Positions 720-63,735 of a DNA stretch of 64,000 bases are shown piece by piece. The position numbers and the translations under genes were made by a program. How positions within the stretch are numbered: position 1 is the stretch's first letter; each line of letters opens with the position of its first letter. The notes under the pieces were generated by a model. That model was not told the origin of the DNA and ran no database searches. It saw only the letters and a program-made list of their open reading frames with translations. The stretch is from an uncultured Gemmatimonadaceae bacterium (lineage in GTDB: Bacteria > Gemmatimonadota > Gemmatimonadetes > Gemmatimonadales > Gemmatimonadaceae): assembly GCA_963829055.1 (NCBI GenBank), contig CAWHHI010000020.1, positions 640,001-704,000 on the forward strand, in the 5' to 3' direction.

Positions 720-2316
720 ATGCGCGACCACGTGACGCGGCGTCCCATGCCGGTCGAACAATCCATCCTCTGGAAGCCGCTGCGCGACTCTCACTATGTC
801 GTCGCATCGCTGCAGCCGGCCGACGGCGGTCGCCGCAGGATCTTCATTCGCCAGCAGGTCGTTGCCCGTGTGGAAGCACTCGTGCGAGCCCATGGCCGTC
901 GTACTGTCGGACTGCTCCTCGGCCAGTTGTATCAATGCTCCACAACCGGCGCGGACTACCTGGTCATCGAATCAATTTCGGAGCACGAGGTCGTCGGAGA
1001 CGAAAATGACCTAGCGACCACGATCGGCGCAGCGTTGGAGGACCGGTCGACACAGCGTCATGGCGTCTTCGGGTTTGGGGACGATCACGCACACGTTCTT
1101 GGTTGGTATCGCGGAGTGACGGCTGTCGAGGCAAGGCCATCACTCAGTACCGCGGGGATTCACGCCTCTCTCTTCGGTCAACCCTGGCAGACGACCCTCG
1201 TCGTCAGCGAAGGCACCCGGCCGGAGGGCGCGTTTTTTCTGCATGACGTCGTGAATTCGCGCTGGTTCTACGCGCCGTTTTACGAGCTGCTGAGCCACGC
1301 GCCCGCGCCGGACCAGCCAAAGGCGACGGTTATCAATTGGCCGCAGTACATGACAGCGGAACCAGTGGTTCCCGCAGAGCGTGCGGCCAGCGCTGCGCCA
1401 GAGGCGGAGCTGGCAGACGTCCGAGCCGCAGAAGCCCTATGAGCGGCCGTGGTTGAGGCGGCCATCGGACAAGCACACCAGGGAGGAGCGTAGTCGGTTA
1501 CGCGACGGCGCGGACTCGCCGCTCGTGGATACGCCGACTGCGCTAACGGGCGACGCACCGGAGCCCGTGTCGCACGATGGGCGGCCTCTGGCGGATCAGC
1601 CTGTGGTGGACCGCCCAGTGACGAATCGGCCCGCCCCGCGGTCGGCTGACGCGCCACGAGGAAATCGAGAACGGCCGGGCTCGCGACGCGAGGAAAAGTC
1701 GACGGAAAAGCTGTCGATCGTCGATGACCGCGATCAGAAAAAGGAGACACCGCCGAGCACGCGCCGGCTCGGCGATGACGACGATACCGTCATGGGCGAG
1801 GACCCCGGCCGCTACATCGAGATTGCCCGTGCGGAGGGCTTCTTCATTGCCGCGAAATTCGACGCCGCGGGAGAGAGAGGTCGCGCGGAAACGCTCTGGG
1901 TGCTGAACGAGCCGTATTCCGGTTTATTGCTCGCCGTAGTGGGTGCGGGCTCGGAAGTCGTCGACGCGACCCTTCACTACAACCTGCAGACAGACGACGT
2001 GGGGTTGCAGCAGACGCCCTTCCCCGAGCACCGCGATCCCGAGTCGAAGACGATCTATGTTCGGGAGACGTGCATGGACTCGTTACGCGCGCGGTGCCGT
2101 CGCCTCCGAGCGACGAACGCGCTGCTGCGCGAGTGGAAAGTGACGCCGCCGATCTCCTTTCTCACGCCCGGCGAGTGGGAGTCCATCCCGGTGTCCGGCA
2201 CCGCGGCAGACGGCGGTGTCCGGGGGACCAGTGACCTCAACAAGGCGCGAATCGCGGAGCTGCCGCCCGGAGTTCGGAGCCAGTTCCATCTCCCCGGCGG
2301 CGAATCGAACGCCTAA
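720..2316 (+). CDS. Hypothetical protein with N-terminal JAB/MPN-like domain (probably inactive), Pro-rich linker and unknown C-terminal domain; probable frameshift near 1420-1440
   Basis: ORF 720..1442 has VGLLLG...VLGWY...HASLFGQPWQTTLVV, the layout of MPN domains; ORF 1381..2316 overlaps it and continues with protein-like sequence. Confidence 0.5.
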
Positions 2317-2321
2317 CGACG

Positions 2322-3308
2322 CTACGGCTCGAGCACCATTTTCCCGCCGGTCTCCCGCGTCTCGACCGCGCGGTGCGCCTCCAGCACGCGATGCGCCTCC
2401 GCCGCGTCGGCCAGCGGGAACGTCCTCTCGATCGCCAGGTGCAGCCATCCCTCGGCGAGCCAGCTCAATAGCTCGGTTGTCCGAGCGGCGAACTCCTCGG
2501 CCGCCGCGACGTGATGCGCGAATAGGGGACGAGTGAGGTAGAGCGAGCCCTTGCGGTTCAGGATCTGCGGATCGACCGGTGCGACCGGCCCGCTGGCCTG
2601 CCCGCAGAGCACCATCATGCCGCGGGGACTGAGGCAGTCGAGACTTCCGTCGAACGTGTCCTTGCCAACGGAGTCGTATACCACTTGCACTCCCCTCCCG
2701 CCCGTTAGGCGGCCCACTTCCGCGACGAAATCCTGCCGCGGATAGAGTATCACCTCGTCGGCACCGGCGTCGCGGACCAGCGTGGCCTTCTCCGGCGTCG
2801 AGGTCGTGCCGACCACCCACGCGCCGCGCCGCTTCGCGATCTGGCAGAGAAGGAGGCCGACCCCTCCCGCCGCCGCGTGTATCAGGCACCGGTCCCCCGG
2901 TTTCAGCGGGTACGTGGACATCGCGAGGTAGTGGGCGGTGATCCCGCGCATGAGCACGGCGCCGCCGACCCTCGCCTCGACGGCGTCGGGAAGTCTGACG
3001 AGCCGTTCCGCCCGCGCCGTCGCCAACTCGGCGTACGCCCCCTTGAACGATTCCGAGGTAACACGGTCGCCCACTCGCGGCCAGGTCACTCCTTTGCCCA
3101 CCGCGACTACGGTACCGGCACCCTCGCCCCCCGGCGTGAAGGGATATTGCACGGGGACCTCCCCGCTCCGCTGAAAAACTTCGACGACGTTGACGCCGAT
3201 CGCCTCCAACTTGACGACGGCCTCCCCAGGGCCGGGGTCCGGGTCAGGGACGTCCTCGAGGCGCATCACCTCCGGACCACCCGGCGCCGGGACACGAATG
3301 GCCTTCAT
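2322..3308 (-). CDS. qor: NADPH:quinone oxidoreductase (zeta-crystallin/MDR family)
   Basis: Intact 328 aa; PFTPGGEGAG, HAAAGGVG, VVYDSVGKDTF, KGSLYLTRP motifs. Confidence 0.9.
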   Translation of the reverse strand: MKAIRVPAPGGPEVMRLEDVPDPDPGPGEAVVKLEAIGVNVVEVFQRSGEVPVQYPFTPGGEGAGTVVAVGKGVTWPRVGDRVTSESFKGAYAELATARAERLVRLPDAVEARVGGAVLMRGITAHYLAMSTYPLKPGDRCLIHAAAGGVGLLLCQIAKRRGAWVVGTTSTPEKATLVRDAGADEVILYPRQDFVAEVGRLTGGRGVQVVYDSVGKDTFDGSLDCLSPRGMMVLCGQASGPVAPVDPQILNRKGSLYLTRPLFAHHVAAAEEFAARTTELLSWLAEGWLHLAIERTFPLADAAEAHRVLEAHRAVETRETGGKMVLEP

Positions 3309-3469
3309 GTGGCCCTCATTATCAGCTCGGGATCGGTTTCAGCCACAGCGCCGCGGGCGCAAGGGACAACAAGGAACAACAAGGGATCGACACGTTAGGC
3401 GCTGAGTACGTTGGGACGACCGATCGCAAGCCACGGCCCATGGGATGTCGCTGCCGCGCATGAGGACGT

Positions 3470-6127: not shown

Positions 6128-7611
<1,484 letters not shown>

Positions 7612-7669
7612 CAATCCTCATCGTTAGGTAAGTGAATCATGCAGAGTGCTATCAGCTATCAGCTATCAG

Positions 7670-8637
7670 CTACTGACGGCTGAGACTCCGGCTCCGAGCA
7701 TCCGCTGCCACGACGAACAACGCCGGGCCATTCGCGTCCGCATCGACTGGCAGCGGCGTGTAACGCACGCCGAGTGAAGCCGGCGGCGGACAGCCACTCG
7801 GTCATCTGCTCGGACGAAAAACCCTGCCACACGTGGCCCATCTGCTGGCGGTACTCCTCGCGGTCGTGCGGCATCATGTCGACCACGATCAGGCGTCCGC
7901 CCGGCCGTAGCACACGCGCCGCCTCGCCTAACGCCTTCTGCGGCTCGGCAATGTAGTGCAGCACGAGCGACATGACGGCCGCGTCCATCTGACCGGGCTC
8001 GATCGGCAGCGCCTCCAGCTCGCCCTGCCTGATCTCGACGTTGCTCAAGCCATCGAGCCGGCGGCGGGCGGCGGCGAGCATTGCCGCCGACGCGTCGACG
8101 GCGATGACGCGCTGCACGAACGGCGCGAGCGTCGCCGTGAGCGGGCCGGTGCCGCAACCCAGGTCGGCGATGAGCCAGTCGGGGTCGACCAGCGCGAGCA
8201 TGCCGGCCAGCGGCGATCGCTCGCCGAACAGCTCGCCGCGCACTGCGTCCCACTGTCCCGCGACGGACGAGAAGAACTCCTGCGAGCGCGACCGGCGTTC
8301 GCTCAACACGCCGTCCACGCGGCGCGAGTCCTGGCGCCCGGCGGGACTCGCGGCTACCTGGTCACGCACGATCGTCCAGAGCTGGCGCGCGGCCGAATCG
8401 AGCGCCGTCTCCAGTCGGTAGTAGCGGCTGGTGCCATCGGCTCGGGACGCCACCCACCCGTCGTCGCTCAGGATCTTGAGGTGGCGGCTCACCGTGGATC
8501 TGCGGGAGCTGCAGCACCGAACAGAGCTCGGTGACCGTGAGCTCGCGATCCTCCAGCACGTGAAGCAGCCGGCTCCGTGTTGGGTCGGAGAGCGCGCTGA
8601 GCTGGTCGAAGACGCCGGGGCGTAGAGTAGTATTCAT
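7670..8637 (-). CDS. sahR: ArsR-HTH + class I SAM-methyltransferase-domain regulator (SahR-like), frameshifted
   Basis: ALSDPTRSRLL...VTELCSVLQLPQ/TVSRHLKIL (ArsR HTH) followed by ADLGCGTG (SAM motif I); directly upstream of ahcY, the usual SahR context. Confidence 0.85.
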
Positions 8638-8683
8638 CCGTATATCCGGATGTAACGCTACAACCATCGGACCCGAGAGTCAA
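8635..8683 (-). promoter_or_regulatory. Sigma70-type promoter with overlapping palindromic operator for sahR-ahcY
   Basis: Minus strand TTGACT (8683-8678), 17 nt, TAGCGT (8660-8655); palindrome CATCCG-TATATC-CGGATG (8635-8652) spans the expected start site and the ATG. Confidence 0.65.
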
Positions 8684-8894
8684 GCACCCGTGGTCCCCTG
8701 TAGGAGCGAGTTCGTTGCGATCCAGAACGCGCTCCGTAAGTAGGTGAACCGGCGTGAGGCGAAGTTCCGGCGCTCCGGATTGTGCACCCCGGCACATGGC
8801 AGCGCCGGGGTCAACCATCTATAGTTCCGTCCGTTCCGTGCCTGGCGCTGTTGCCGGCATTGGGTGGAGTCCCGTTCGAGGAGTAGTGCCGCGA

Positions 8895-9770
8895 ATGATT
8901 CGACGGAGGGTCGTGCTCCTTCCGCTGCGCGCAGCACGTCTCGGTCGCCTCGCGCTGCTGCTCCTCGGCAGCGCGATGGCGTGCGAATCCGCACCCGCCT
9001 CGAACGCGGATTCCGCCGTCGCACAGGCGCCGAAGGACACGGGCGCAGTCACGGACAAGTACGTGCCCAGCGTCGACGAGGGCCTTGGCGCGTCGATCGC
9101 GATCCTGATCGACAACTCCGGTTCGATGAAGAAAGCGGCCGAGGGCGACAGCCGCCGAAGTACGTCGTCGCGCGCGAGGCGCTCGAAGCAATGCTGGCGT
9201 CGACCGACTCGTTCGTGGCGCGAGCAGCCGGACTTCCCGATCAACGTCGGCCTGTACCGGTTCTCGAGTCCGCGTGACGGCGATGGTGCCGATCAGGCGC
9301 TACGACCGCGGCCGCGCCTCAAGTCGCGGCGCTCGACATCGATGCCCGAACCCGACGGCGGCACCGCGATCGGAAGGGCGATGGACGTCGCGCGTGACGA
9401 CCTCTATCGCGCCGGGACATTCCGGAAGTACATCCTTGTCGTCACCGACGGCGAGAACACGGACGGCGTGTCGCCTCGCCGCATCGCGCAAGAGATCAAC
9501 CGGCGCAGTGAAGGCGCGGTGCGCATGTACTTCGTCGCGTTCGACGTCGACGCCGAGCGGTTCGCGCTTCGTGCGCGACGTGCGAGGCGAGGTGGTCGGC
9601 GCCCGCAACGGCTGACGCGCTCCGCGCACGACTCGACGACGATCTACCGCGGGAAGATTCTTTCCGAAGCAGTGGATGCCGGCGAGACCTCAGCGCGGCT
9701 TGCCGCCGATTCGGCCTCGCGCGATTCGGCCAAGCCTCCGACGACTCCGAGGAAGGACACACGACCATGA
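8895..9770 (+). CDS. vWA-domain lipoprotein (intact MIDAS), internal compensating indels
   Basis: Lipobox-like LLLLGSAMAC; ILIDNSGSM (DxSxS), GGTAIG (T), ILVVTDGENT (D). Confidence 0.8.
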   Translation: MIRRRVVLLPLRAARLGRLALLLLGSAMACESAPASNADSAVAQAPKDTGAVTDKYVPSVDEGLGASIAILIDNSGSMKKAAEGDSRRSTSSRARRSKQCWRRPTRSWREQPDFPINVGLYRFSSPRDGDGADQALRPRPRLKSRRSTSMPEPDGGTAIGRAMDVARDDLYRAGTFRKYILVVTDGENTDGVSPRRIAQEINRRSEGAVRMYFVAFDVDAERFALRARRARRGGRRPQRLTRSAHDSTTIYRGKILSEAVDAGETSARLAADSASRDSAKPPTTPRKDTRP

Positions 9771-10511
9771 TCATGGGAAAATTCTTCCAGCGCGTTCCGC
9801 GCGCAGCTCAACAAGATCGCGAACATCTTCTTCGAGGCTGACCCGATCGCGGTGATGCAGCTCGAGGTGGATCAGGCGACCGAGCGTCTCAAGGAAGGAC
9901 GGAAGGGACTCGAGATGTATCGCGGCCTCGTGGAGACCGTCGCGCGTCAGGTCGCGGCCGGCAAGTCGAACATCGTCCAGCTCGAGGCGCAGATCAAAGC
10001 GCATCTCAAGGCAGGCAATCGCGACGTGGCCGGCCAGCTCGCGATTCAGCTGCAGAAGGCGCAGACGGAGCTCGCGCGAACAACGAGCAGCAGCTCGAGA
10101 TGCACGAGCAGGCCTATCAGAACAACCTGCTCAAGATTCAGAAGGCGAACAAAGACATCGTGAAGGTGACGCGACAAGATCCGGCAGTACGACGCGGAGC
10201 TGAAGATGAGCGCGGCGGAGGCCGAGATCGCGCAGATCTCCGAGTCGTTCGACATGAACGTGACGACGGACTTCGGCGAGATCGAGTCACGTGATCCAGC
10301 AGAAGATCGACACGAACCGCGGCCGCGCGCGCGTGGCGACCGACATGTCGTCGAAGGGCATCGAGTCGATCAAGGCCGAGGAAGCGGCCGAGAAGGCGAT
10401 GGCCGAGGATCTTCTCTCGAAGTACGAGGTGCAGCTCGGTCTCAAGTCGCCGGAAACGACGCCGGTGGCGGATACCGTCAAGAGTCTCGGACCGCGGTGG
10501 AAAACAAATAG
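9767..10511 (+). CDS. PspA/IM30/Vipp1 (ESCRT-III superfamily) protein, frameshifted
   Basis: Stitched: amphipathic N-terminus MGKFFSAFRAQLNKIA, EADPIAVMQLEVDQ, long coiled coil, AHLKAGNRDVAGQLAIQL, C-terminal EKAMAEDLL; ATGA overlap with the vWA stop. Confidence 0.75.
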
Positions 10512-10618
10512 GGACTAGGGACTGGGGCTGGGGCCAGTGACTCGGCGAGGATGCTAGCTCGCAGCGAAGCTCCCGCCGAGTCCCTAGTCCCCAGTCCCGA
10601 GTCCCAGCAACCAGTCCT
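10510..10618. repeat. Long imperfect hairpin with heptamer-repeat arms (GGGACTA/G ... CAGTCCC) inside the operon
   Basis: GGGACTAGGGACTGGGG..GACTCGGCG pairs with CGCCGAGTCCCTAGTCCCCAGTCCC. Confidence 0.65.
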
Positions 10619-10638
10619 CTAGCTCCACGTACCCAACC

Positions 10639-12381
10639 ATGGCAAACGGCAGACCGAAACCGGCGTTCTTCCTCGTGATGTTCCTCGTCGTCGCGGGGCT
10701 GATCTACTACGGCGTCTCGCGCTTCGGCGGCACGAAGCCGGCCTCGGCGGCAGCGACAGCTCGAGCCATCTCGCCGACGGATCTCGCGAACAGAAGGGCG
10801 GGCCCGAGGCGCCTGACGCGAGCAGCGTCACGACGGTCAAGGAGTACAGCTACGTCGCGAGCGCCAAGCTGCCCGAGGTGAAGGGCACGTCGGCCTACAC
10901 GCCGATGGTCGACAACACCGTGCGCATGGCGCTCAACGTGTGGGCGGGATGGGCGCCGGTGATCCACGCCAACAACGGCTTCAAGGCCGGCAAGGTCTGG
11001 AAGACGCCGAGCGGCAAGACGTTCAAGCTCGAGCTCGTGCTGATCGACGACCCGATCGCCATGCGCGACGCCTACGCGTCGGGCAAGGTGCACATCGGGT
11101 GGGCGACGCTCGACATGATACCGCTGTTCGTCGAGCAGTTGCGAAAGGACTCGCGCACGATGCCGCGCGTCTACCAGCAGATCGACTGGTCGAACGGCGG
11201 CGACGGCATCGTGTGTCGCGCAGAACGTCAAGTCGGTGACCGACCTGCGCGGCAAGACGGTCGTGCTCGCGCAGAACTCGCCGTCGCACTTCTTCCTGCT
11301 CAACACGCTCATCAGCGGCGGCCTGCAGCCGGCGACGTGCAGTACAAGTTCACGCAGGACGCGTTCCAGGCGGCCGCGGCGTTCAACGCCGACAAGTCCG
11401 TGGCGTGCGCCGTGAGCTGGGCGCCGGACATCTACAACCTCGCCGACGCGAGCGGGCAACAAGATGCTCGTGAACACGCAGACGGCGAACAAGCTCATCG
11501 CCGACGTGTGGTTCGCGCGCGCCGACTTCGCGAAGGACAACCGCGCGATCATCGAAGGGCTCGTCGCGCGGGATCTTCGAGGCGATGGAGACGCTGAAGA
11601 GCGCAGGACGGGAAGGCGACAGGTCGCGAAGCTGATGGCCGCCGGGCTACTCCATTCCGGAGAAGGACGCGCTCGGCATGCTCGGCGACGCGCACTCGAC
11701 GAACTACGCCGAGAATCGCGAGTTCTTCCTCAACCAGAACAACCCGACGAACTTCGAGCGCACGTGGAACACGGCGTACTTCCTCTACCGGAAGATCGGC
11801 AGCGTGTCGGGGAATCCGGTGCCGTTCGACCAGGTGATGGACTTCTCGGTCATCCAGAAGCTCGGCGAGCGAGCCGGTCTACGCGAACTCAGAAGAACGA
11901 GTATCAGGTGCAGTTCGTGCCGACGTCGGCGACGGCGGTGCAGGCCGAGAGCAACGAGATTCTCACGAAGAGCATCGTCATCCAGTTCTACCCGAACTCC
12001 GACGACATCGAGAAGACGATCGAGAAGACGGTGGACGGAAAGACGGTGCAGGAGGCGTACGATCCGAACGCGCCGTTCGTGGTCGAGGAGGCGGGCAAGC
12101 TCGCCGGACAGTTCGGCGCGGCGCGCATCGTCATCGAGGGCCACACCGACGCGTCGATGAAGAACTCGGGCACCGTCACGGCGGCCGACGTGCAGGAGCT
12201 CTCGCTCCGGCGCGCGAACGCGGTGAAGCAGGCGCTCATTCGCAAGTTCCCGTCGCTGCAGCCCAATCAGTTCACCACGGCGGGCCGCGGGTGGGATCGG
12301 CCGGCCGATCCGAGCGACCCGAACAACAACGCGAAGAACCGGCGCGTCGAGATCAAGGTCTATCCGCTGGAGTCGAAGTAG
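10639..12381 (+). CDS. Membrane-anchored NMT1/TauA-type substrate-binding protein fused to a C-terminal OmpA-like peptidoglycan-binding domain, frameshifted
   Basis: N-terminal TM FFLVMFLVVAGLIYY; ALNVWAGWAP, DWSNGGDGIV, VSWAPD (type-2 PBP); IEGHTD...LSLRRANAVK...GRG...NRRVEI (OmpA_C). Confidence 0.85.
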
Positions 12382-12388
12382 GTCCGCG

Positions 12389-13271
12389 GTGACTGAATCG
12401 GTGACGACCCAGACACCGACGGCGGCCGCGCCGCCGTCGGTGCAGGCCGCGCCGCAGTCGCTCATGCGGCGGCTGTTCACGCTGCGCGAATCCCGCCGCC
12501 GCTCGTCAAGCGCGCAGTCGGGATCGCCGGCGTCGGCCTCGGCGTGTTCGTCTGGTTCCTGCTCACGCTCGGCTCCACGCCCGAGACACGCATCGTCTCG
12601 CCGGTCGTGCTGCCGAGCCCGGGGAAGTGCTCCGCAGCATCCCGACGCTGTTCACGCGAGCGCGGACTCGTCGCGAGCACGGCGGCGACGCTCGCGTCGC
12701 GTCCTCAGCGGCTTCGGGCTGGCGATCCTCGTCGGCGTGCCGTTAGGCATTCTCGCCGGCGCGTACCGCATCTTCGACGCGTTCACCGGACCGATCTCGC
12801 TGTTCTGCGCAACATTCCGGTCGCCGTGCTGATCCCGCTCACGATTCTGTGGTTCGGCATCGACGAGACGCAGAAGACGATGTTCATCTTCATCGCCACG
12901 GCGCCGTTCGTGTTCTTCGACGCGGCGCGCGCCGTGGCCGGCGTGCACGACCGCTACGTCGAGACGGCGCAGACGTTAGGCGCGTCGCCGCGCGCAGGTC
13001 GTGACGAAGGTGCTCATCCCGCTCGCGATGCCCGACATCTACTACAGCCTGCGCAGCCTGTTCGGTCTCGCGTTCGGCTACATCATGCTCGCCGAGCTCG
13101 TGAACGCGGAGCACGGGCTGGGCTACCTGCTGATGATCGAGCCAGCGACGCGGGCTCACCGAGCACATCTTCGCGATCCTCATCGTGATCGGGCTGCTCG
13201 CGTACGGGATCGACCGGCTGCTGTACTGGTTCCAGCGCGGGCTGTTCCCGTATCGGACCGAAGACGACTGA
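12389..13271 (+). CDS. ABC transporter permease, NitT/TauT/SsuC family, frameshifted
   Basis: VLPSP, GVPLGILAG, RNIPVAVLIPLTILWFGIDE, ETAQTLGAS (EAA loop), AELVNAEHGLG. Confidence 0.85.
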
Positions 13272-13278
13272 CACGACC

Positions 13279-14153
13279 GTGACGCACGAACGACAGCCAG
13301 CGCGCGAGCGCCGGCGCCACCGCCGGCCGCGGCGCCGCCGGCTCGCGCCGCCGGTCGTCCTGTTCGACCACGTGACGAAGACCTACGACAACGGCTTCAC
13401 GGCGATCAAGGACGTGTCGTTCGTCGTCGAGGACATTCCGAACGAAGATGGAGTTCATCACCATCCTCGGTCCGTCGGGCTGCGGGAAGTCGACGGTGCT
13501 GCGACTCATCGCGGGACTGACGCCGCAGTATCCGGCGACGTCGGGCACGGTGCTCGTCGTCGGGCAAGCCGGTGCTCGGTCCCGGGCGCCGATCGCGGCA
13601 TGGTCTTTCAGGATTACTCGTCGTTCGACAATCGCACGGTCGAGGACAACGTCGCGTTCGGGCTCGAGTGCCGCGGTGTTGCCGCCGAGCGAGCGGCGCG
13701 AGCGCGCGCGCGAGTGGATCAGCAAGGTCGGCCTCGACGTCGATCGCGATGCGGCGAAGTATCCGCACCAGCTCTCGGGCGGCATGCGTCAGCGCGTCGC
13801 CATCGCGCGGACGCTCATCCTGAATCCGCGCATCATCCTGATGGACGAGCCGTTCGGCGCGCTCGATCCGTCGCACGCGGCTCAGCATGCAGGACATGCT
13901 CGTGTCGCTGTCGCGCGAGGCGCAGGCGACGGTCTTCTTCGTCACGCACTCCATCGAGGAAGCCGTCTACCTCGGCGACCGGACGTACGTCGTTCTCGTC
14001 GTGCCCGGGAACGATTCTCAAGGAGCTGCGCGGTGCCGCCGCCGGACTTCCCGGCGAAGCGAGATGCAGCGGCAGCCCGAGTTCATGGAGATCGTGTTCG
14101 AGATTCGCGACATGGTGGAGTCGCTCGAGATCGTCGACTCGCGCGGGGGATGA
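13279..14153 (+). CDS. ABC transporter ATP-binding protein, NitT/TauT family, frameshifted
   Basis: Walker [50 protein letters not shown]. Confidence 0.9.
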
Positions 14154-14197
14154 GTGAGCCCGCGCGTGGCACACCGGACCGGCGGAGCTCGTCGCTG

Positions 14198-15121
14198 ATG
14201 GCGCCTAACGACTCGTCCGGCGCCAGACTCGGCGCCTACGTCAAGCACGCGTTCCTCTACCCCTGGAACCTGCTGTTCTTCCTCGGCGGCGCGCGCGCTG
14301 GCGGCAATGTCGCCGCAGGCCCGACGCATTCCTGCCGATCATCGGCGGACTCGAGCTCGCGTACCTCACGGGCCTGCTCGTCGATCCCACGCTTCCGCAC
14401 CGCGATCGACGCGAAGATCGCGGCGAAGGCGCGCGAGGCGAGCGCGCGACGCGCCGCGCGTCGAGCCGTCGAGCCAGCAGTCGCTCGAGCGCATTCTCGA
14501 GTCGCTGCCGGCGCCGGCGCTTCGCGCGCTTCCTGCTGCTGCGCCAGCGCTGCTTCGAGATGCGCTCCATCGCGTCGCGGCATTCGCGGCCAGGCGGACC
14601 GGCACGCGCGACTCGGCCGAGATCGATTCGGACGCCGGCGCTCGATCGACTGCTCTATCTGTTCCTGCGGCTGCTCGTGTCGCAGAACGGGCTCGATCGC
14701 TTTCTGCGCAGCACGAGCGAGAAGGAGCTCGACGCGCAAGCTCGACGGACATGCGCACGCGCTTCGAGGCGGCGAAGACCGGCCGGCGACGAACGCGTGA
14801 CGCAACTCGCTGCAGGACAGCGTCGCGGACGCCGAGCTGCGGCTCGACAACTATCGGAAGGCGACGAAGGACGCGGAGTTCGTGGCGATCGAGCTCGATC
14901 GCATCGAGACGAAGATCCAGGCGCTCATCGAGATGGGTGTGAGCCGCCAGGACCCCGAGACTACCTGAGCCATCAGGTGACGGCGGCGGCGGAGAGCATG
15001 CAGCACACGGAGGCCGCGGTGAACCAGCTGCAGCATTTGACCGGCCTCGCCGACTCAGATCGACGAGCCACCGGCGATTCTCGAGGCGACCATTGGCGGA
15101 CTGGTGGCGCGTGACCGCTGA
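14198..15121 (+). CDS. Two-TM membrane protein with long alpha-helical/coiled-coil cytoplasmic domain, frameshifted
   Basis: Stitched: [52 protein letters not shown]...[16 protein letters not shown]; start could also be ATG at 14150. Confidence 0.65.
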
Positions 15122-47937: not shown

Positions 47938-47984
47938 CAGCGATCAGCAGCGATCGTAGCGATACACGGCTGACGGGGCGCGAC

Positions 47985-49966: not shown

Positions 49967-50715
49967 CTATCGGCTGGTGGGATAGTGACGCACGGTACGA
50001 CCGGCATCGTCGAGGAAGTCCAGCGCCGGCACGCCGGCCGAGTCAACCGTTAGGCGGATGCGCGGACGACCGGCGGGGTCGGCGAGCATGACCGTCGACG
50101 CGCGATCGGGCGTCTTGCCGACGAACACGCGCAGCGTGCTCTTGCCCGCCTGGCCAATGGGTGAATCACGTAGCTGCTGCAATCGGCGCGTCTTCTCCGG
50201 CCCATCGGGTAACGCCTGGAATGCCATGGCGCTGTCGGCGAACGGCTTGATTGGAATCTCCGAACGGTCCGCGAACGTGAGACCCGCGCGCGCGTGGCCG
50301 TCGACGTCGCTGTAGGTGAACGACACTGCCTCGTCCTGGTCGAACTGGTCGAACGTCAGGTGACCGTTCGCGCGGTAGCCCGTTGCGGTTTTCCGACCGG
50401 CGTAGACGAGCCCACCGTTCTCGTTGCCCTCGTCATTGAAGAAGATCAGGCCGGCCGAGCCGGACCCGGTGCCGCCGCGGAGCGGGTACGACTTGCCGCC
50501 GATGATGGGATCAGGGAGACGAGCGGCGTTGGAGATCGTCAGGCGGAGCTTGCCGTCCTTCTCGATGACGTTGATGCGCTCGACGTCTATTTCTGTGAAG
50601 CGATTTGCGCGGATCTGGCGAAAGGCGCCAATGGTGAGGACGCCGCGGCGAGTCCCGCCAGGACGAGTACCCGGCGTACCTGGCGCAGCTCTCGTTGAGT
50701 TTCGGGGTCGATCAT
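49967..50715 (-). CDS. Uncharacterised membrane-anchored beta-rich protein, paralog B, frameshifted
   Basis: EIDVERINVIEKDGKLRLTISN, GLIFFNDEGNENGGL, FDQFDQD, RIRLTVDSAGVPALDFLD. Confidence 0.8.
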
Positions 50716-50789
50716 GGGCGCTCGCCGCGAATGGTACGCATCCACGCGGATGCTCGTGGAGTCATACCATCCTCGTATGATTCCAGGCA

Positions 50790-51110
50790 CCGGGGTCGGT
50801 GGGAACGACGATTGGGCGGATCTGTACTGCGGAACTACCGGATACGGCTTTGCGTTCAGGCATCATCGCGCCGGGGCCGGTGGGAACTACGATCGGGCGG
50901 ATGAAACGGAAGAAGCCGGATACCGCTCGGCAGGTCGAGCTCCTCTCGCAACGAGCCGGGATTTCTTGGGAACGGCCGCTCGGGACGCAGGCGTCCCGAG
51001 CGGCCGTTCCTCATTCAGCTCAGAGTCCGGCGAGAGCCAGCGTCGATGCAAAGCCGTATCCGGCCGTTTTCCGTGTCATCCGCCAAATCGTCGTTCCCAC
51101 CGAGCCCCGG
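50790..51110. repeat. About 320-bp nested inverted-repeat element (candidate structured RNA or MITE)
   Basis: Outer IR 50790-50821 / 51078-51110, second IR CGGATACGGCTTTGC/GCAAAGCCGTATCCG, perfect 20-bp hairpin 50969-51010, extra copy of the left arm at about 50878-50902. Confidence 0.7.
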
Positions 51111-51125
51111 CGCGATGATGCGTAG

Positions 51126-52209
51126 TCAGCGCGGAACTCGCCGGTCGCGATGCAGACGGCGCTCCAGCCACGAGCCATACGCCGACATCAGCGTGCTCGC
51201 GGTAAAATAGATCGCCCCAACGAAGACGTACGCCTCGGTGTGGAAGCCGAGCCACTCGGGGTCCTGGGCGGCGCACGCGCGCGGTGTTCAGCAGATCGAA
51301 CAAGCCGATGATCACGACGAGGCTCGTGTCCTGAAAGAAGCCGACCGCGATCGACACGAACGACGGCACCACGACGCGCAGGGCCTGCGGAAGGATCACG
51401 AGCCGCTGCATGCGCCACGCGCTCAATCCCAGCGCGCGCGCGGCGTCGTACTGACCGCGCGGCACCACCTGCAGCCCCGACCGCACCGCCTCGGACAGAT
51501 AGGCCGACGCGAACACGACGATCGCCCCCTGGGCGAGGAACAGCTTGTCGATCTCGATCCCCGCCGGCAACGCGAGTGGCACCACGAGTGCCGCGACATA
51601 CAGCACCGCGATGAGAGGAACACCACGCACGGTCTCGACGAAGGTCGTCGCGAGCACGCGCGGCACGGCCAGAGTGGACCGACGACCCAGCGCCAGCAAC
51701 ACCGCGAGCGGGAAGCCTAACGACAAGCCAACCGCCGTGAGCATCACCGTGATCGGGAGTCCGCCCCAGAGACGGGTCGGTACGCGCTCGAGGCCTGCGC
51801 CGCCGTGCATGAGCCAGAACGCCGCGATCAAGCCCGACGACCCAGGCGCCGATGAGCCACCGTCGCCAGACACCACGGGAGGGCCGAGGCGACGATGAGT
51901 GCGACCAGCAGACGTCAGTGCGATGCTGGCTCGCCACCGCTCATTCGGCGGATACAATCCGAACACCACGAACGCGAGCTTGTGGCCGACGAACGCCCAG
52001 CATGCTCCGCTCGCCGCTCGGCAGTCTTCCGCCGAACCCGTCCACCGGGCGCCGATCAGGGCCCATCGACTGAGTGGAATGGCGACCGCGGCGACAACCA
52101 GTGCGACGACGGCGGTGAGCAGCGCGTCGGAGGGTGTCGCAACGCTCCGCCGCAGGAACGCGGCAACGCCGGTGGACGCTGGCGGGCGCGCAGCCGACGT
52201 ACGTGTCAT
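51126..52209 (-). CDS. aapM: Polar amino acid ABC permease (AapM-like), frameshifted
   Basis: GACWAF, FGLYP..ERWR, WGGL, LALGRRS, VRGVPLI, SEAVRSGLQ.VPRGQYDAA, ILPQAL. Confidence 0.8.
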
Positions 52210-52213
52210 CGCG

Positions 52214-53307
52214 TCAGGCGGCCGGACGCAACAGCCGCCGGTTGTACGCGTTCATCGCCGCTGCCACCATGAGGCTCAGCGTCAGATAGACGACGATCAT
52301 GATGAGCATCGTCTCGATGGCGTGCCCGGTCTGGTTCGCCGTCGTGTTCAGGATGCTCACGACGTCCGGAAAGCCGATCGCCACCGCGAGGCTCGAGTTT
52401 TTCGTCAGGCTCACGCAATTCGTCGCGATGAGAGGGACCATCGCGCGGAGCGCCTGTGGGACGACGACGAATCGCATCGTCTGCCCGCGCGAGAGCCCTA
52501 ACGCGACCGCGGCGTCGCGCTGCCGAGCCGGAACGGCCAGCACGGCACCGCGAACGACCTCGGAGATGTGCGCGGCATGGTGCAGTACGAGCGCCCCGAG
52601 CAGCGCTGTCAGTTCCGGCGAGATCGTGATGCCGTCGACGAAGTTGAAGCCCTGCAGATGCGGACGTTCGAGCACGGGCACCGCGACGGCGATCGACCCA
52701 ATCATCGCGAGCCCCAGGGCCCCGGCGAGAACCTTCCAGGCGACAGCGCGCCGAATGGGTCGCGCGCGACGCGCCGACCACGAGCACGGCCAGGAGTGCG
52801 ACGCCTAACGTCAGCTGCACCGCGGACAACGACAGCGACGGCATCACCAGCCCACGGTCCGACACGAACACGCTCGGCAACGGCTCCAGCGCGCCTCGCG
52901 CCGGCGGCAGCGTGTGCATCGTCGCCGCGAGAAACAGGAGCAGCAGCAGCAACGGCACGTTCCGCACGAGCTCCACGATTCGCCCGCGCGACGCCGCGCA
53001 CGGCGGGGTTGCGTCGCGAGCCGCAGAATCCCGAGTACGAAGCCGAGCGCGATCGCGAGGATCCAGCCGAGTACGGAGACGCGTGCCGTGTTCGCGAGCC
53101 CGACGAGGATCGCGCGCACGAACGTGTCGGCCGGCGAGTACGCGATCGGCGCGTCGCCGATCTCGAAGTTCGCCGGCTGTCTCAGGAAGCCGAAGCCGAG
53201 TGAGATGCCGTGCTGGTCGAGCGTGTTCGCGGTGTTGTGGCCGAGCCACCAGAGCGCGGCGGCGGCAACTCCCAGCGCGATTGCCTGACTGCGGCCTGCC
53301 GCCTCAC
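52214..53307 (-). CDS. aapQ: Polar amino acid ABC permease (AapQ-like), frameshifted; start uncertain
   Basis: GFGFLRQPANFEI, RAILVGLANT, VELVRNVPLLL, GFNFVDG..ISPEL, NSSLAVAIGFPD, NTTANQTGHAIE. Confidence 0.8.
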
Positions 53308-53314
53308 AACCGAA

Positions 53315-53383
53315 GCCCTCTACCAATACGCTCGCGATTCCTCGACTCACGGCCTGCTCGAGCATCGATCGCTCGGAATGACA
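53315..53383. repeat. Half copy (right arm) of GTCATTCCGAGC-type element between aapJ and aapQ
   Basis: CCCTCTACC...GATTCCTCGACT...CGCTCGGAATGACA. Confidence 0.6.
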
Positions 53384-53386
53384 CGG

Positions 53387-54486
53387 TCACCGGAACGGTG
53401 GGGCGTACATCAGGCCGCCGTCGGTCCACAATGCATTCAGGCCGCGCGTCATTCCGAGCGGCGTTTTCGGGCCGAGGCTGCGGTCGAAGATCTCGCCGTA
53501 GTTCCCGACTTTCTCGATGACGCGCGCGGTCCAGCGCGCGTCGAGACCGAAGCCGTCGGTGACGCCCGGCTCGAGGCCGAGAAATCGTTTGACTGGACGG
53601 GTCGGCGCTCGTCTCGAATGTGGCGACATTCGCCTGCGTGATCCCTATCTCCTCGGCCTGCACCGGAACGCGGAACACCCAGTTGATGAGCTCGAGCCAC
53701 TGGTCGTCGCCGTAACGAACGACCGGCGCGATCGGCTCCTTGGACAGACGGTCCGGGAGGACGATGTAGTCGTTAGGATTTCGCAGCATCGTGCGCGTCG
53801 TCGCCAGGCCGGCGCCATCCTGGGTGATGACGTCGCAGCGCCCGCCAGCGAGCGCGGAGACGGCGCCGCGCAGATCCTCGATGACGACCGGCCGGAACTT
53901 GATGTTGTTGCGGCGCGCGAAGTCGGTGAGGTTGAGCTCCGTCGTCGTGCCCTGCTGCACGCAGACCGTCGCGCCGTCGAGCGCCGCGGCCTTGCTGACG
54001 TTCAGCGCCTTCGGGCACGAGGAACGCCTGGCCGTCGTAGAGGTAGACGGGCCCGAAGTGAAAGCCGCGCTGCATCGTGCGACTGATCGTGAGCGACGTG
54101 CCGTTCACGAGGAGATCGACCTCTCCCGATTGCAGGCCGGAGAACCGCTGCGACTGGGTGTATGGTACGAACTCGACCTTGGCGGGGTCGCCGAACACCG
54201 CGACAGCAACGGCGCGACAGAAGTCGACGTCGAATCCCTGCCACTGTCCTGCGTCGTTAGGCGTCGCGAAGCCGGCGGCCTGCGAGATGCCGCACCGCAC
54301 CGAGCCTCGTGCGCGAACAGCCCGGAGCGTCGCGCCCGCGACTCCGGATTTCGCCGACGCTCCGTTCGTCGAGGCAGACGCCGCGCGATTGGTGTCCGCG
54401 GATGAGCCGGCGCTCGACGAGCATGCCGTCACCACCGTCGCGCACAGTAGCAGCAACGCGCGTACGCGAAGCCGACGCACGCTCAC
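53387..54486 (-). CDS. aapJ: Amino acid ABC substrate-binding lipoprotein (AapJ-like), frameshifted
   Basis: Lipobox VVTAC; GFDVDFCRAVA, RFSGLQSGEVDLL, YDGQAF, GTTTELNL, SKEPIAP, VGNYGEIFDR, RGLNALW.DGGLMYAPPFR. Confidence 0.88.
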
Positions 54487-55701
54487 GGCGTCTCCGCGGA
54501 GACCAGCTGCAGCTGATCGAGCCCGTACGCCAGATCGGCGATGAGATCCGCGGGATCCTCGAGTCCAACATGAAGTCTGATGTACGGCCCACCCGCCGTC
54601 CACCGCGTGGCCGCGCGGTGCGGCGACGGATTCATCGGGATCGCGAGGCTCTCGAATCCGCCGAAGCTCGCCCCCATGCCGAACAGCCGCAGCGAATTCA
54701 GCATCGCGTCCACAGCCGCTTTCGGAACGGGATTCAGCACGACACCGAACAAGCCACTCGCCCCCGTGAAGTCCCGCTTCCAGAGCGCGTGCCCCGCATC
54801 GCTCGGCAACGCCGGATACACGACGCGTTTGACCTCAGGGCGTGTCATGAGCCACTCGGCCACCTGCAGCGTACTGCGCTCGTGGCGCTCGAGTCGAATG
54901 CCTAACGTCCGAAGGCCGCGAAGCGCGAGGAACGCGTCGTCGGGACTCACGCAGTAGCCCAGCTCGGCCACCATCGACCGGACGGTGTCGTAATACGGCT
55001 CGGTCGTCGCGATGGTGCCGAGCATGACGTCCGAATGTCCGCCGATGTACTTCGTGGCCGCGATGATCGACACGTCCACACCATGCCTGCATGCCGGCGA
55101 AGAAGTAGGGCGTCGCCCACGTGTTGTCCATGACCACGACCGCGCCCGCCGCGTGCGCCACTGCCGCAATCGCCGGAACGTCCTGCACCTCGAACGTGAT
55201 CGAGCCCGGGGACTCGACGAACACAACGCGCGTCTCCGGACGCATCAACTCCGCGATGCCGCCTCCGACGCACGGGTCGTAGAACGTCGTCGTGATGCCG
55301 TAGCGCGGGAGGATCGCCTTGCAGAAATGCCGCGTCGGCGCGTAGGCCGAGTCGGTCATGAGCAGGTGGTCGCCGCTCTTGAGCAGCGCGAGCAGTGCTG
55401 TCGTCACCGCGGCGAGACCGGACGGCAGCAGCATCGCGCGATACGCGCCCTCGAGCGTCGCGATCGCCTCCTCGAGCGCGAACGTCGTTGGCGTACCGAG
55501 CTGGCCGTAGCGCACGACGTCGAAGCGGCGTGAGTGCTCGCGCGACGCCTCCCACTCCTCGACGGTGGGAAACAGGATCGTCGAGGCGCGATACACCGGC
55601 GGACTCACGGCGCCCTGCCGATCCTCCGGGAACCCGCCGACGTGCGTCAGCAGCGTGTCGCGACGGAATCGGCGATCGTCGTCAGGTGACGGTTTCTTCA
55701 A
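54483..55701 (-). CDS. metC: Cystathionine beta-lyase / C-S lyase, frameshift near 55085
   Basis: VSPPVYRASTILF, YGQLGTPT, PSGLAA, ESPGSITFEVQD, MDNTWATP, ATKYIGGHSD, FGMGASFGGFESL, RLHVGLED. Confidence 0.9.
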
Positions 55702-57081
55702 TGAGATGTCTTCGCGGTGGTGTTCTGGGAGCCTTGCTGAACGATACGCTGGTGTTTCAGGCCCCACCGGTTGCTCGGTCGCCACGCGAGGCGCTCGGCC
55801 AGAAGCTCGCGCGCTTCGGCGAAGCGGCGTCCGCGAACCGCGGCGTCAATGAGCAGCTGGTCGAACACGTCGCGCTGGGCGTGACTCGCGCCTATCCGAC
55901 GGACGCGGCGCCTCACGGGCATGAGCTCGTCGACGGCTTCGGCATAGGCGCCACGCCGATGCGCAACCACTGCACGCGCGAGCGGCAGCCCCACGTCCGC
56001 CATCACCTCGGCTTCGGTTCCCTGCCCGCTCGCCGCGAATCGCTCGCACGACGTCAGGAACTCTTCCACGACGGTACCGTTGCCGGCGGCCGCGAGAGCC
56101 ATGAGATAGTGCAGGTCGACGAACACGAGCGCGTGGTCATCGACGTGCGACGCGGCACGGGCAGCCAGCTCGGTCCACCGCGCGCCGACGCTCACGTCCG
56201 CCTGCTCCAACCGCCAGAGCAACGACACGGCGTTGGCCATGTCGAGATACTCGTCGGTCGACTCGGCTCGCACTTCGCGGTCGTACAACGCGAGCACGCG
56301 ATCGTGCTGCTCGAGCTCGAGGTGATACAGCCCTTCGTGCCACTTGAGGTGCAGCGCGAAGTTGCTGCACTCGTGCCACTCGTCAGCCAGGTCCGCGATC
56401 CAGGCGATGCCATCCTCGAGTCGCCCCTCCATCTCGGCCACGTGCGCGACGGCGTGTGCTGCCCAGATGTCGCCGCGGTCGAGCTCCACGGCGCGCCGGC
56501 CGGTTTCCTCCGCCTGACGATAGTCGCCGGATTCCTCGAGCGCATACGCGTGGCAGCCGAGTACGAAGCCGTAGCCCGGCTCGTTAGGGCTCCACGATGG
56601 CAGGACGCGGGCGACGCGCTCTCGCATCCCGTTGCTTTCGCCGAGGTACGACAGCACGAACTGGGAGACCTTGAGGGCGACGAGGTCGCGCGGAAACTCG
56701 TCGAGTAGCGTGTCCCACACGCCGGCAGCGCCGCGCATGTCGCCGCGCGACCAGGCGTCGAGCGCGGTGCAGTGCAGCTGCTCTCGCCGGGCGATCACGT
56801 TGCGTGCGCGCTTGCGCCCGGGTGAGTGCCTGACGAGCGCGCGGCATCGCGTCGCGTTTGCTCGACAGCATGGCGAGGTAGCCGTCGACGCAGTGGGCGA
56901 GCACGCACGTCGGGTCGTGGGCAAGGACGGCGGAGAGGCGATCGCGCGTGTCGCGTCGTGCGCGCGCATAGCCCGTGACGGTGTGGTCGAGCAGCCGCAC
57001 CGTCTCCTGACTCGCGGCCTGCACCAGCTCGCCGTTCATGTCACGCATGTCACGAAGGCTCGACACGGTCACCCTCGGCAC
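55698..57081 (-). CDS. TTC38-like tetratricopeptide-repeat protein, frameshift near 56860
   Basis: REQLH, LDEFPRDLVAL, GCHAYALEE, DIWAAHAVAHVAEM, HLKWHEGL, SLLWRLE, IGASHAQRDVF, as in the TTC38 family. Confidence 0.8.
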
Positions 57082-61625: not shown

Positions 61626-61629
61626 CGGC

Positions 61630-62370
61630 CTAACGCCCCTGCGGGAGACGGCTGGTGACGTGACCGGAGTCGTCGAGGAACTCCAGCTGTGGCGAGCCGA
61701 GTGAGTCGACGCGCAGCACGAGCCGCGGCCGGCCCATCGGATCATACAGCCGAAGCGCCGATGCCTTGGCGCGATCGCGACCGATGAACACGCGCGGAGC
61801 GGCCATCACGACGCCATCACGAATCGGCTGCTGAAATCGGCGCAGCGCTTCGGTCTTCGTCGGACTGTCAGGCAGCTTGTTGATCGAGTCCATCTCGTTG
61901 ACGAAGTCGATGATCGGCTTGTCCGTGCGATCACTGAACGTGAGCCCCGCCTGACGATTCCCGTTCTCGTCGGAGTAGTTCAGAACGACGATCTGATCCT
62001 GATCGAACTGGTCGAACGACATGTGCGTGCTCGCGCGGTACTTCCCGTCGGGGCCGCGCTTGCCGGTGAGCGTCAGGCCGCCGTTCTCGGTGCCTTCGTC
62101 GTTGAAGAAGATGATCCCGGGCCGCGAGCCGCCCTTGTAGCCGAACGGCTTGCCTTTGTAGATCGGGCCGATGGAGCGCGGCCGGTTCGAAATGACCAGG
62201 CGCAGCTTGCCGTCGGGCTCCACGATGTTGATCCGCTCGACGTCGATCTCGCCGAACTTCTGCTTCTGTGGCTGCCGCACGAATGCGGTGATGGCCATGA
62301 GCACGATCAGCGTCGTGGAACCGATCGCGTACCGCTTGAGGAAGCGGATGTCTTTATCTCGAGTGTCCAT
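61630..62370 (-). CDS. Uncharacterised membrane-anchored beta-rich protein, paralog C
   Basis: LKRYA-TM, EIDVERINIVEPDGKLRLVISN, IGPIYKGKPFGY, GIIFFNDEGTENGGL, FDQFDQDQ, VDSLGSPQLEFLD; closely similar to 49147..49887. Confidence 0.85.
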   Translation of the reverse strand: MDTRDKDIRFLKRYAIGSTTLIVLMAITAFVRQPQKQKFGEIDVERINIVEPDGKLRLVISNRPRSIGPIYKGKPFGYKGGSRPGIIFFNDEGTENGGLTLTGKRGPDGKYRASTHMSFDQFDQDQIVVLNYSDENGNRQAGLTFSDRTDKPIIDFVNEMDSINKLPDSPTKTEALRRFQQPIRDGVVMAAPRVFIGRDRAKASALRLYDPMGRPRLVLRVDSLGSPQLEFLDDSGHVTSRLPQGR

Positions 62371-62385
62371 GTTTTTCCTGGTGGC

Positions 62386-62492
62386 TGTCATCCCGAGCGT
62401 CAGCGAGGGACCTTATGTGAAGTACTCGTGGCCCGGCCAGCTACGATGCCCTCACAGAAGGTCCCTCGTCGCTGGCGCTCCTCGGGATGACA
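62386..62492. repeat. GTCATCCCGAGC-type palindromic element
   Basis: TGTCATCCCGAG ... CTCGGGATGACA; core TGTGAAGTACTCGTGGCC...GCTACGATG...TCACAGAAGGTCCCTCG. Confidence 0.8.
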
Positions 62493-62496
62493 ACTC

Positions 62497-63735
62497 CTAG
62501 AAGTTCGGGTTGTTCGCCTTTTCCGAGAACGGCACCGGCAGACACGCCACCGGCAGGAAGTTGCCGTACTCGGGCTTGTAGAACGGGGTCCCCGCCGCCG
62601 GAACGAGTGCCGCCGCGGTCGGGTTGCGGAGGACGTCGCCGTAGTGCTTCCCCTCGAGCCAGAAGTCGCGCGCGCGCTGCTGCATCAGTTCCGCGAGCAC
62701 CGCCGCCGTCGTCGTTCCCGCAAATGGTGGCTGACTCCCCGCGGTACGACGTTCGGCAATCAGGGTGAGCGCGGGCGCCGTGTTACCGTTGATCTTGAGC
62801 TGTGCCTCGGCGGCGATGTAGCGCGCCTCGAGTCCCGACGCGATGCGGATCGGAGCCGCGAAGCTCGGAAATTTCGTCTGCCGGTAGAGTCGGTTGCGGC
62901 CGTCCTGCGCGTTGATGCCTGCGTCGACCCATGGCACGCGTGGGTCGGCCAGCAGGCGGAACGGATCGGCGACGATCTGTGTCGTCCCCGACGACGAGAT
63001 GAACACGCCGTTGCTGAGCCGACCACGCGCCTGTGGGTCGTCGACCTGCACCGTCGTCGCGACGAACGCCGCGGGAACCAGGTTGGCCGCCGTGAGCGCG
63101 TTCGCGTTGTCACCTTTCTGGAGATACGCGCGTGCGAGACCGACGCGCGCGATGTTCACGATCTTGGTCGCCTCGGCGCTGGTGATCCCGCCGGCGATCG
63201 TCGCGGCCAGCTGCAGCCTAACGATGGCGGAGTCGAGCATCTGCGCCGGCGTGAGGGCCGGGCCAACGTGCAGCACGCCCTGGCAGAAGATCTCCGCGAG
63301 CGCCTCGACGGCGAGGCCGGACCAGAGTGACGAGCGCGCCGCCGCGATGTCGGTGTTGAACGTCGGCGTGCCCTTGAGCACGGTGACGACCTGGTCGTTC
63401 GTCCCGATCGCCGTCTGCATGGGCGCCCAGAACGATCCACTCAGGTCGACGTTCGTGTCGACGATCACGTGACGCGCGATGTCGTTCGTCTCGTTTCGAA
63501 CGGCGCCGCTCCACGTCTCGTTGGAGTAGTTCGCCGTGTTGTTGATGAACGCGCCGTACGCGACGTAGAAGTTCTGTTGCCCGGAGAGCGAGAAGACGCG
63601 AGCGTCGGCGACCGGATCGATGGTCGAGGCCTGCACGACCGTCGGGTCTTTCACGTCGGTGCTGCAGCCGGCGAACGCCACCGAGGCGACCCCCGCGACC
63701 GCAACCCGGCGCATCGAGCGATGTATGGTGCGCAT
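62497..63735 (-). CDS. SusD/RagB-like outer membrane lipoprotein
   Basis: Lipobox AFAGC; ARVGLARAYL, EARYIAAEA, QRARDFWLEGKHYGDVLR, PVPFSEKANNPN. Confidence 0.85.
   Translation of the reverse strand: MRTIHRSMRRVAVAGVASVAFAGCSTDVKDPTVVQASTIDPVADARVFSLSGQQNFYVAYGAFINNTANYSNETWSGAVRNETNDIARHVIVDTNVDLSGSFWAPMQTAIGTNDQVVTVLKGTPTFNTDIAAARSSLWSGLAVEALAEIFCQGVLHVGPALTPAQMLDSAIVRLQLAATIAGGITSAEATKIVNIARVGLARAYLQKGDNANALTAANLVPAAFVATTVQVDDPQARGRLSNGVFISSSGTTQIVADPFRLLADPRVPWVDAGINAQDGRNRLYRQTKFPSFAAPIRIASGLEARYIAAEAQLKINGNTAPALTLIAERRTAGSQPPFAGTTTAAVLAELMQQRARDFWLEGKHYGDVLRNPTAAALVPAAGTPFYKPEYGNFLPVACLPVPFSEKANNPNF

Follow-up and report, generated by a model that had tools for sequence, protein, structure and literature searches.

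A GTTAGG-core octamer placed silently in Gemmatimonadaceae genes and its possible role as a DNA-uptake tag

Why does one octamer recur throughout the coding DNA of a high-GC bacterium, at the expense of its preferred codons? The question is raised by a stretch of 64,000 nucleotides from an uncultured Gemmatimonadaceae bacterium (GenBank assembly GCA_963829055.1, contig CAWHHI010000020.1, positions 640,001 to 704,000), here called the window. Its GC content is 67.4%, and between positions 2311 and 63223 it holds, on both strands, 49 exact copies of a word with a GTTAGG core, 27 as CGTTAGGC and 22 as the reverse complement GCCTAACG. A first reading of the letters without database searches (the sequence-only reading) had counted about 49 copies with the same split and located them accurately; its base-composition estimate of two to three copies agrees with the 2.4 computed. 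Dinucleotide shuffles of the window (n=100) give a mean of 0.84 and a maximum of 3 copies, against the 49 observed, and copies follow one another at a mean distance of 1,269 bp (minimum 96 bp, maximum 4,815 bp). The sequence-only reading took the word for a selected, strand-balanced, genome-wide signal of the kind represented by DNA uptake sequences (DUS) or HIP1, and proposed as checks 8-mer counts against Markov and codon-preserving null models, replichore skew, conservation at orthologous positions, an artefact test and a correlation with methyltransferases. As described below, shuffles, conservation, replichore analysis and the spacing of copies support such a signal, and the word may act like a DNA-uptake sequence.

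Enrichment and silent placement of the word

In the source assembly (G000; 7.78 Mb, 20 contigs, GC about 67%; other G numbers denote genomes of relatives and L numbers extracted loci) the word occurs 5,004 times, 2,547 on one strand and 2,457 on the other, and the little strand bias seen earlier in the window thus extends to the genome. With the word masked, 60-69 copies are expected, an enrichment of about 70-fold. The density is 0.64 per kb (range 0.48-0.80), copies are present on 20 of 20 contigs, and the word is the highest-ranked 8-mer of the genome under Markov models of orders 2 and 3. Its length is exactly 8 bp, since the flanks are uninformative and give no longer consensus; the copies show no helical periodicity up to 1.5 kb, and an Rfam scan of the window returned no match, so that an RNA element is not supported. 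Some changes at the edges of the word also stand above background in G000, namely CGTTAGGT (827 copies vs 40), CGTTATGC (583 vs 62), TGTTAGGC (435 vs 25) and CGTTAGGG (428 vs 31), and changes at positions 2, 3, 5 and 7 are mostly around or under background. An assembly artefact is excluded, as all six same-genus genomes are rich in the word (2,501-5,112 copies), five of them (G001-G005) at orthologous positions. Single-base indels relative to relatives are frequent in the window and the assembly, and none is located at the word.

The word is placed by silent codon changes, counter to codon bias. The 5,163 high-confidence genes of G000 carry 2,955 copies in their bodies, against 70-116 in amino-acid-preserving synonymous shuffles (n=5), and the loss of enrichment under such a shuffle, named beforehand as a refutation, did not occur. 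Gene-body copies use all four stop-free frames. Of the 2,526 TTA codons in G000 genes, 1,197 (47%) fall inside the word, as do 294 of 5,156 stop codons, and the word is favoured over its synonymous neighbours 15- to 246-fold relative to codon usage elsewhere.

Density is alike inside and outside genes and reaches its maximum at gene ends, where single copies cluster; spacers hold 1.23 copies per kb when convergent, 0.88 when co-directional and 0.39 when divergent. Genes with the lowest GC at third codon positions have half the density (0.35 vs 0.74 per kb). Conserved core regions are also below average, and weaker variants fill part of that deficit, the dcw cluster holding 3 perfect and 11 variant sites in 20 kb. 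Between replichores the copies are split almost evenly, 2,440 leading and 2,339 lagging (51.1% leading), compared with 71-79% leading for KOPS-type GGGNAGGG controls in the same genome; a canonical dif site, from which the word is absent, marks the GC-skew switch (G000 C16:560,791-560,818). One of 62 called tRNAs (Arg, ACG; G000 C20:530,254-530,338) holds the word near its anticodon.

Mutual exclusion, conservation and distribution

Copies of the word avoid one another. In G000 the pair correlation lies between 0.21 and 0.29 for distances of 8-120 bp, climbs to 0.5 at 150-200 bp and to 0.9 at 300-350 bp, and levels off near 1 past 500 bp; the avoidance is equal for same, convergent and divergent pairs. 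Three edge-variant classes avoid perfect copies likewise, an avoidance not shared by CGTCAGGC, CGTTCGGC or controls matched for frequency. The effect persists when protein sequence is controlled for, the share of amino-acid-compatible sites in use rising with distance to another copy from 3.6% (below 50 bp) through 10% (100-150 bp) and 20% (200-300 bp) to 32% (800-1,200 bp). Gaps longer than 3 kb make up about 4% of those between functional sites. The benefit of one copy is thus local, orientation-blind and saturating, and neither plain mutation bias nor a one-way signal is sufficient to explain it. Exclusion over about 300 bp, whatever the orientation, is new here, as are the GTTAGG-core dialects described below, and an exclusion range of 200-400 bp together with the tolerated variants provides quantitative predictions for an assay.

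Window positions 1-40,000 were compared with orthologous DNA from five relatives (G001-G005; 82-85% identical, 260-1,170 contigs each, not mutually independent), two probable paralogue loci being omitted. Of the 89 site-genome pairs that could be aligned, 48 keep the perfect word and 53 a functional one; the corresponding shares are 22.9% for all 8-mers, 19% for flanking 8-mers and 26% for those containing rare T/A triplets. There are 21 positions with a site in a relative and none in G000; five lie less than 200 bp from a lost site and one less than 200 bp from a kept site, counts given without a formal test. Positions homologous to a site and free of the word nearly always align without gaps and show 1-4 mostly silent differences. 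Insertion scars and templated writing were rejected on this ground, gapless alignment and few silent changes fitting a divergence of 15-25%, again without a formal test. A comparison of the dcw cluster across 41 genomes shows sites arising mostly at positions where word-poor genomes encode the same residues; at one FtsZ position, 10 rich genomes have GCCTAACG and one more has a variant, and the word is found in none of the 14 poor genomes that share the peptide.

In a sample of the phylum, 22 of 401 genomes hold at least 170 copies, all inside Gemmatimonadales, and the 135 sampled genomes outside this order reach a maximum of 70 (G013, G085, G124, G203 and G660 count only in the denominators of this and the following samples, as word-poor rows). 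Within the order the word is patchy across three families, with G014 holding 6,360 copies in 5.1 Mb (1.25 per kb), and density across lineages forms a continuum of 0.05-2 per kb. G000 aligns at 66-80% nucleotide identity to 14 named Gemmatimonadaceae or Gemmatimonadales loci and little to 4 Verrucomicrobia loci, which puts it in Gemmatimonadales. A tree on 4,902 dcw columns from the 41 genomes has one well-supported rich clade plus scattered branches, and the poor G293 adjoins rich congeners; with a midpoint root and some weak deep nodes, this tree leaves gain versus loss undecided.

A scan of 185,579 species genomes for three spaced copies found 37 loci, 14 in Gemmatimonadales, 22 in Chthoniobacterales/Verrucomicrobiae and one in Azonexus, the Azonexus locus having no additional copies. 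In a sample of 201 Verrucomicrobiota genomes G423 is the sole rich one (1.43 per kb), and in its order 15 of 151 genomes hold at least 180 copies, six of them more than 900. Here the spelling changes around a fixed core: TCGTTAGGC is the dialect of some Chthoniobacterales, and a 1.395-Mb sample of G423 (44% of that genome) has 1,843 copies of it vs 6 expected, with the same first- and last-base changes tolerated as in G000. One Gemmatimonadales genome uses the dialect CGGGTTAGG. In G329 the spelling is CG(G/T/C)GTTAGG at 15 of 15 sites in 20 kb, with 2,145 copies of GTTAGG and just 54 of CGTTAGGC genome-wide, and its congeners G315 and G330 are poor. The relaxed GTTAGG core counts 1,002 in G216 and 704 in G381 (60 kb of each read), and named Gemmatimonadaceae loci favour T at position -1 or tolerate CGTTGGGC. 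The earlier description of the word as lineage-specific is thus right only in part, since the word is patchy over three families and turns up again, as a dialect, among Chthoniobacterales of another phylum. Genomes that are rich, that are poor and that use a dialect occur next to one another, in some cases in a single genus, and give natural contrasts for tracing a reader.

The word is also found in phages. Seven of 60 viral loci with the word hold 0.5-0.7 further copies per kb, and five of these seven include terminase, portal, head or tail genes; the other 53 are chance pairs. The TCG dialect is present in one of 24 viral loci, the other 23 again being chance pairs. As a control, phage HP1 carries 17 cores of the uptake signal sequence (USS) in 32 kb vs 0.29 expected, and because this phage also carries USS, the word in tailed phages fits an uptake signal. 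In the locus L122, matches to cultured phages are confined to a methylase gene.

A possible uptake tag and competing explanations

Four functions had been offered for the word, of which DNA uptake and protein binding remain, and methylation and a Chi/KOPS-type role are disfavoured. By analogy with known systems, the word may act as an orientation-blind uptake tag, a reading held tentatively and at somewhat less than an even chance. The DUS of Neisseriaceae are read by the minor pilin ComP. Similarly, a putative competence receptor, by analogy a minor type IV pilin, would prefer word-bearing fragments, presumably reading the word on double-stranded DNA; preferred fragments would enter and recombine more, and copies would spread where protein sequence permits, through molecular drive or selection for self DNA. 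The reach of one copy would be some 200-400 bp in each direction, a further copy in the same short fragment would add little, and the differences in density and spelling among lineages would reflect transformation frequency and receptor drift.

Like DUS and USS, the word is a non-palindromic 8-9-mer that recurs every 1-1.5 kb or so, on both strands and in all open frames, over-represented, silently placed where proteins permit, conserved beyond its flanks, spelled in dialects with a fixed core, redundant at close range, carried by temperate phages and accompanied by competence genes. The densities reached (0.64 per kb in G000, up to 1.25 in G014 and 1.43 in G423) are near the USS spacing of about 1 kb given in PMC7811141, where two USS within 100 bp bring no extra uptake; a core shared among DUS dialects is described in PMC3630211, and PpdA/ComN is the predicted USS reader of Pasteurellaceae in PMC12616744. 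The halved density in genes with the lowest GC at third codon positions would also fit an uptake tag.

Several observations weigh against an uptake tag. DUS dialects follow the core tree (PMC3630211), and in PMC2397512 DUS are enriched in the core genome and neisserial conversion tracts measure 1.1-1.7 kb; here the word is patchy, falls to 0.33-0.45 per kb in conserved core regions, under the genome average, and reaches only 200-400 bp. Close inverted pairs, frequent as terminators in DUS/USS systems, are at 0.06 of expectation at 8-30 bp in G000. Single rich species stand in poor genera, and the reverse, and the recurrence of one core in a second phylum is not predicted by a conspecific barrier. 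In G423 the close-spacing deficit is mild and tandem copies 10-13 bp apart are in excess. All 40 genomes tested have the competence gene comEC, the word-poor ones (13 of 13) no less than the rich; pilins, which diverge fast, were found in G000 and in the 44% sample of G423, and no pilin of that sample matched G000. To our knowledge, competence is undemonstrated in these uncultured bacteria. The word also differs from DUS and USS in being identical to an integron core box and in its short exclusion range, and, as terminator pairs and congruence with the core phylogeny fail, it is not filed as a DUS or USS. We know of uptake-type signals established in just two bacterial families, and of no explanation for HIP1. 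If the word is an uptake signal, it offers a handle for transforming two hard-to-work-with groups; if it is not, it marks a sequence-specific chromosome factor of an unrecognised kind, one strong enough to override codon bias.

The strongest competitor, though less probable, is an intracellular DNA-binding protein, such as a nucleoid organiser, a sliding clamp or a protective factor, that would bind or load at the word and cover or spread over a few hundred bases. Selection would then favour sites at a moderate and even density on whatever DNA resides in the cell, that of phages too. The exclusion is orientation-blind with a plateau to about 100 bp, variants fill in under the high coding constraint of the dcw cluster, divergent promoter-bearing spacers are the least dense (0.39 vs 1.23 per kb in convergent ones), tandem copies in G423 stand about one helical turn apart (10, 11 and 13 bp), and phage head and tail genes have host-like densities, all of which such a site would accommodate. 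Known organiser sites (parS, matS, NBS, SBS) are palindromic and regional, unlike the word. Moreover, most relatives lack the word and densities are continuous, which means that it is not an essential scaffold; the functional-site gaps longer than 3 kb are a further difficulty, and no candidate protein tracked the word.

An integron-tied reader is unlikely. Here an integrase, or a receptor tuned to attC sites, would know GTTAGGC, and the chromosome would have been filled as a by-product. The word is, letter for letter, the commonest attC core box in relatives, an identity that the sequence-only reading had missed, and the rare copies of poor relatives cluster in integron cassette arrays: 40 of 51 attC-like sites at nine loci in poor genomes end in CGTTAGGC, and 37 of 51 have TGTTAGGC, tolerated in G000 and G423, as inverse box. 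The same word occurs in two phyla, both with integrases, and G000 has two attC-like sites with the perfect word at both ends. Nevertheless, the integrase IntI is present in rich (33 of 45) and poor (21 of 27) genomes alike, so its presence does not discriminate; IntI fragments at contig ends make its absences unsafe. Being unpaired and inside genes, the genome-wide copies are not attC sites: an attC site would have a paired inverse box and L boxes within 57-141 bp and would lie at the end of a cassette, but G000 holds only a few attC-like sites, inverted pairs at attC distance are depleted there (0.21-0.37 of expectation), and the single copies have no L boxes, no hairpin, no tie to cassette boundaries and no correlation with IntI. 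A stricter attC search with folding, whose criteria are too strict, found none in G000 or G423. In PMC5027507, the attC R box is GTTRRRY/RYYYAAC and IntI recognises hairpin structure, with only AAC conserved; specificity for the word reaches past the cut position and varies by dialect. Whether by chance, by convergence or through a genuine link, word and core box coincide.

Three observations belong beside this comparison. An intact-frame IntI homologue at L014:1429-2406 (G000 C20, about 208 kb) lacks two residues of the catalytic site, the Lys and the HxxR His; its closest counterpart, similarly altered, belongs to the poor G293. A small attC-like array without an integrase nearby lies at G000 C20:119,250-120,700; it contains the two sites with the word at both ends and a gene that we take to be HicB-like. 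The word-poor relative G027 has a long cassette array of at least 27 attC sites (L003, G027:C95:1-24,000). It is doubtful, although conceivable, that the two phyla share one recognition system targeting the cassette core box, moved between them or evolved twice. If so, cassette-end DNA would be preferred and chromosomes and phages would fill with the word as a by-product, making this a third, mobile family of uptake signals that opens a channel, instead of a barrier, between phyla and ties transformation to cassette capture.

Still less probable is an origin of the HIP1 type, in which GTTAGG/CCTAAC would be methylated by an orphan methyltransferase, and repair directed by the methyl mark would make and keep sites. 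The word shares with HIP1 (GCGATCGC) its length, density, genic habit and a tolerance of changes at the first and last base (PMC4390886), and HIP1 and the alternative HIPs are genic octamers in 15- to 300-fold excess (PMC4390886, PMC5861425). Patchiness and dialects could be explained if the methyltransferase were mobile and its recognition domain drifted. The word itself is not palindromic, as HIP1 is, and a site-by-site repair bias predicts no mutual exclusion. Furthermore, methyltransferase presence is unrelated to the word for four Pfam families and one G000 gene: PF01555 occurs in 13 of the 27 rich genomes and 7 of the 13 poor ones, PF02384 in 17 and 10 of them; eight rich genomes have neither, and among the five of these tested PF00145 is in none and PF02086 in three, G679 and G363 matching none of the four families. 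The D12-type gene of G000 was not found in G014, G304, G329, G216 or any of five Chthoniobacterales, and is present in five poor genomes. No DNA methyltransferase is common to G000 and the 44% sample of G423.

A one-way signal like Chi or KOPS, addressed to a helicase-nuclease (RecBCD/AddAB) or a translocase (FtsK), is already largely refuted and very improbable, since, although the word is a non-palindromic octamer in coding DNA and G000 has what we take from motifs to be an AddAB-like pair and FtsK, it lacks the replichore polarity of the KOPS-type controls, its enrichment is far higher, and opposite orientations exclude each other as strongly as same ones, unlike a one-way signal.

A reader was sought among proteins shared by the two phyla. 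The G423 sample gave 1,285 called proteins, 608 matching G000; 353 of these passed filters and were inspected by eye, and a Pfam scan was run on 42. As 56% of G423 is outside this comparison, a shared gene may lie there. A 205-aa protein with no Pfam match, 61% identical across phyla (L263:14969-15586 and G000 C5:243,028-243,639), was rejected, being in 29 of 76 genomes, not found in 25 rich ones and present in 7 poor ones; it was also not found in G304, and the Atlas gave hypothetical clusters only. In G423 it adjoins an ATP-dependent ligase-like gene, and it presumably resembles YaaA. A family B polymerase was rejected as well (two of five genomes, one of them poor). In G000, dprA and a cluster for type IV pili are present, as we recognise them from the sequences. 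Searches of open-access papers, without supplements, brought up no description of the word.

Individual copies and other features of the window

Gene calls in the window were made with our own gene caller and are constrained by the 1-bp indels of the assembly. By these calls, 28 of 49 copies lie in gene bodies, covering all four open frames (the sequence-only reading had noted several), 14 lie outside genes, and seven overlap a stop codon, including those at 2316, 25010 and 29834 that it had pointed out. The minus-strand copy at 2311..2318 gives the TAA stop of a plus-strand gene (GCC TAA CG), the plus-strand copy at 25005..25012 a TAG stop (CGT TAG GC), and the minus-strand copies at 29829..29836 and 61628..61635 the TAA stop of an ABC-permease fragment and the TAG stop of a minus-strand gene, respectively. 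A further minus-strand copy at a TAA stop (35533..35540) is identical in four of four aligned relatives. On the plus strand, the copy at 16368..16375, in an Ala-Leu-Gly frame with the rare TTA codon, is identical in five of five relatives, and that at 7286..7293, in the xPN frame of the 5' piece of a frameshifted S-adenosylhomocysteine hydrolase gene, is kept in two of three aligned ones. G001 and G005 have lost the plus-strand copy at 12741..12748, and each carries a new one at a distance of 175 bp (window position 12566), a case of local turnover. The plus-strand copy at 28348..28355 is unique to this genome, with preferred Leu codons there in five of five relatives, and was gained by silent substitutions without insertion.

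Nine weaker variant sites (7622..56589) belong to classes that are enriched genome-wide and obey the spacing rule: CGTTAGGT at 7622, 18270, 26071, 29668 and 49210, CGTTAGGG at 46070, 52496 and 56582, and CGTTATGC at 39838. The seven one-mismatch variants listed earlier are all present.

From 9,700 to 20,000 the window has dense 1-bp indels relative to five relatives and many genes are split; ahcY (6128-7493) is another gene split by 1-bp indels. Sequencing error is likelier than decay as the cause of these splits.

Elsewhere in G000, four contig ends are free of the word (C11:1-46,000; C6:6,000-50,000; C6:592,000-end; C19:1-9,000). They hold genes resembling other taxa, the start of C19 having 57-69% protein identity to Chthoniobacterales, and are probably joins made during assembly; presence of the word might be used to check binning. 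The window also contains an intergenic family resembling repetitive extragenic palindromic (REP) repeats, often inverted and with arms beginning TGTCAT(T/C)CCGAGCG, at 10586, 39120-39250, 40732-40850, 47105-47240, 48952-49140, 53372-53455 and 62386-62490, the 14-base seed of which has 456 copies in G000.

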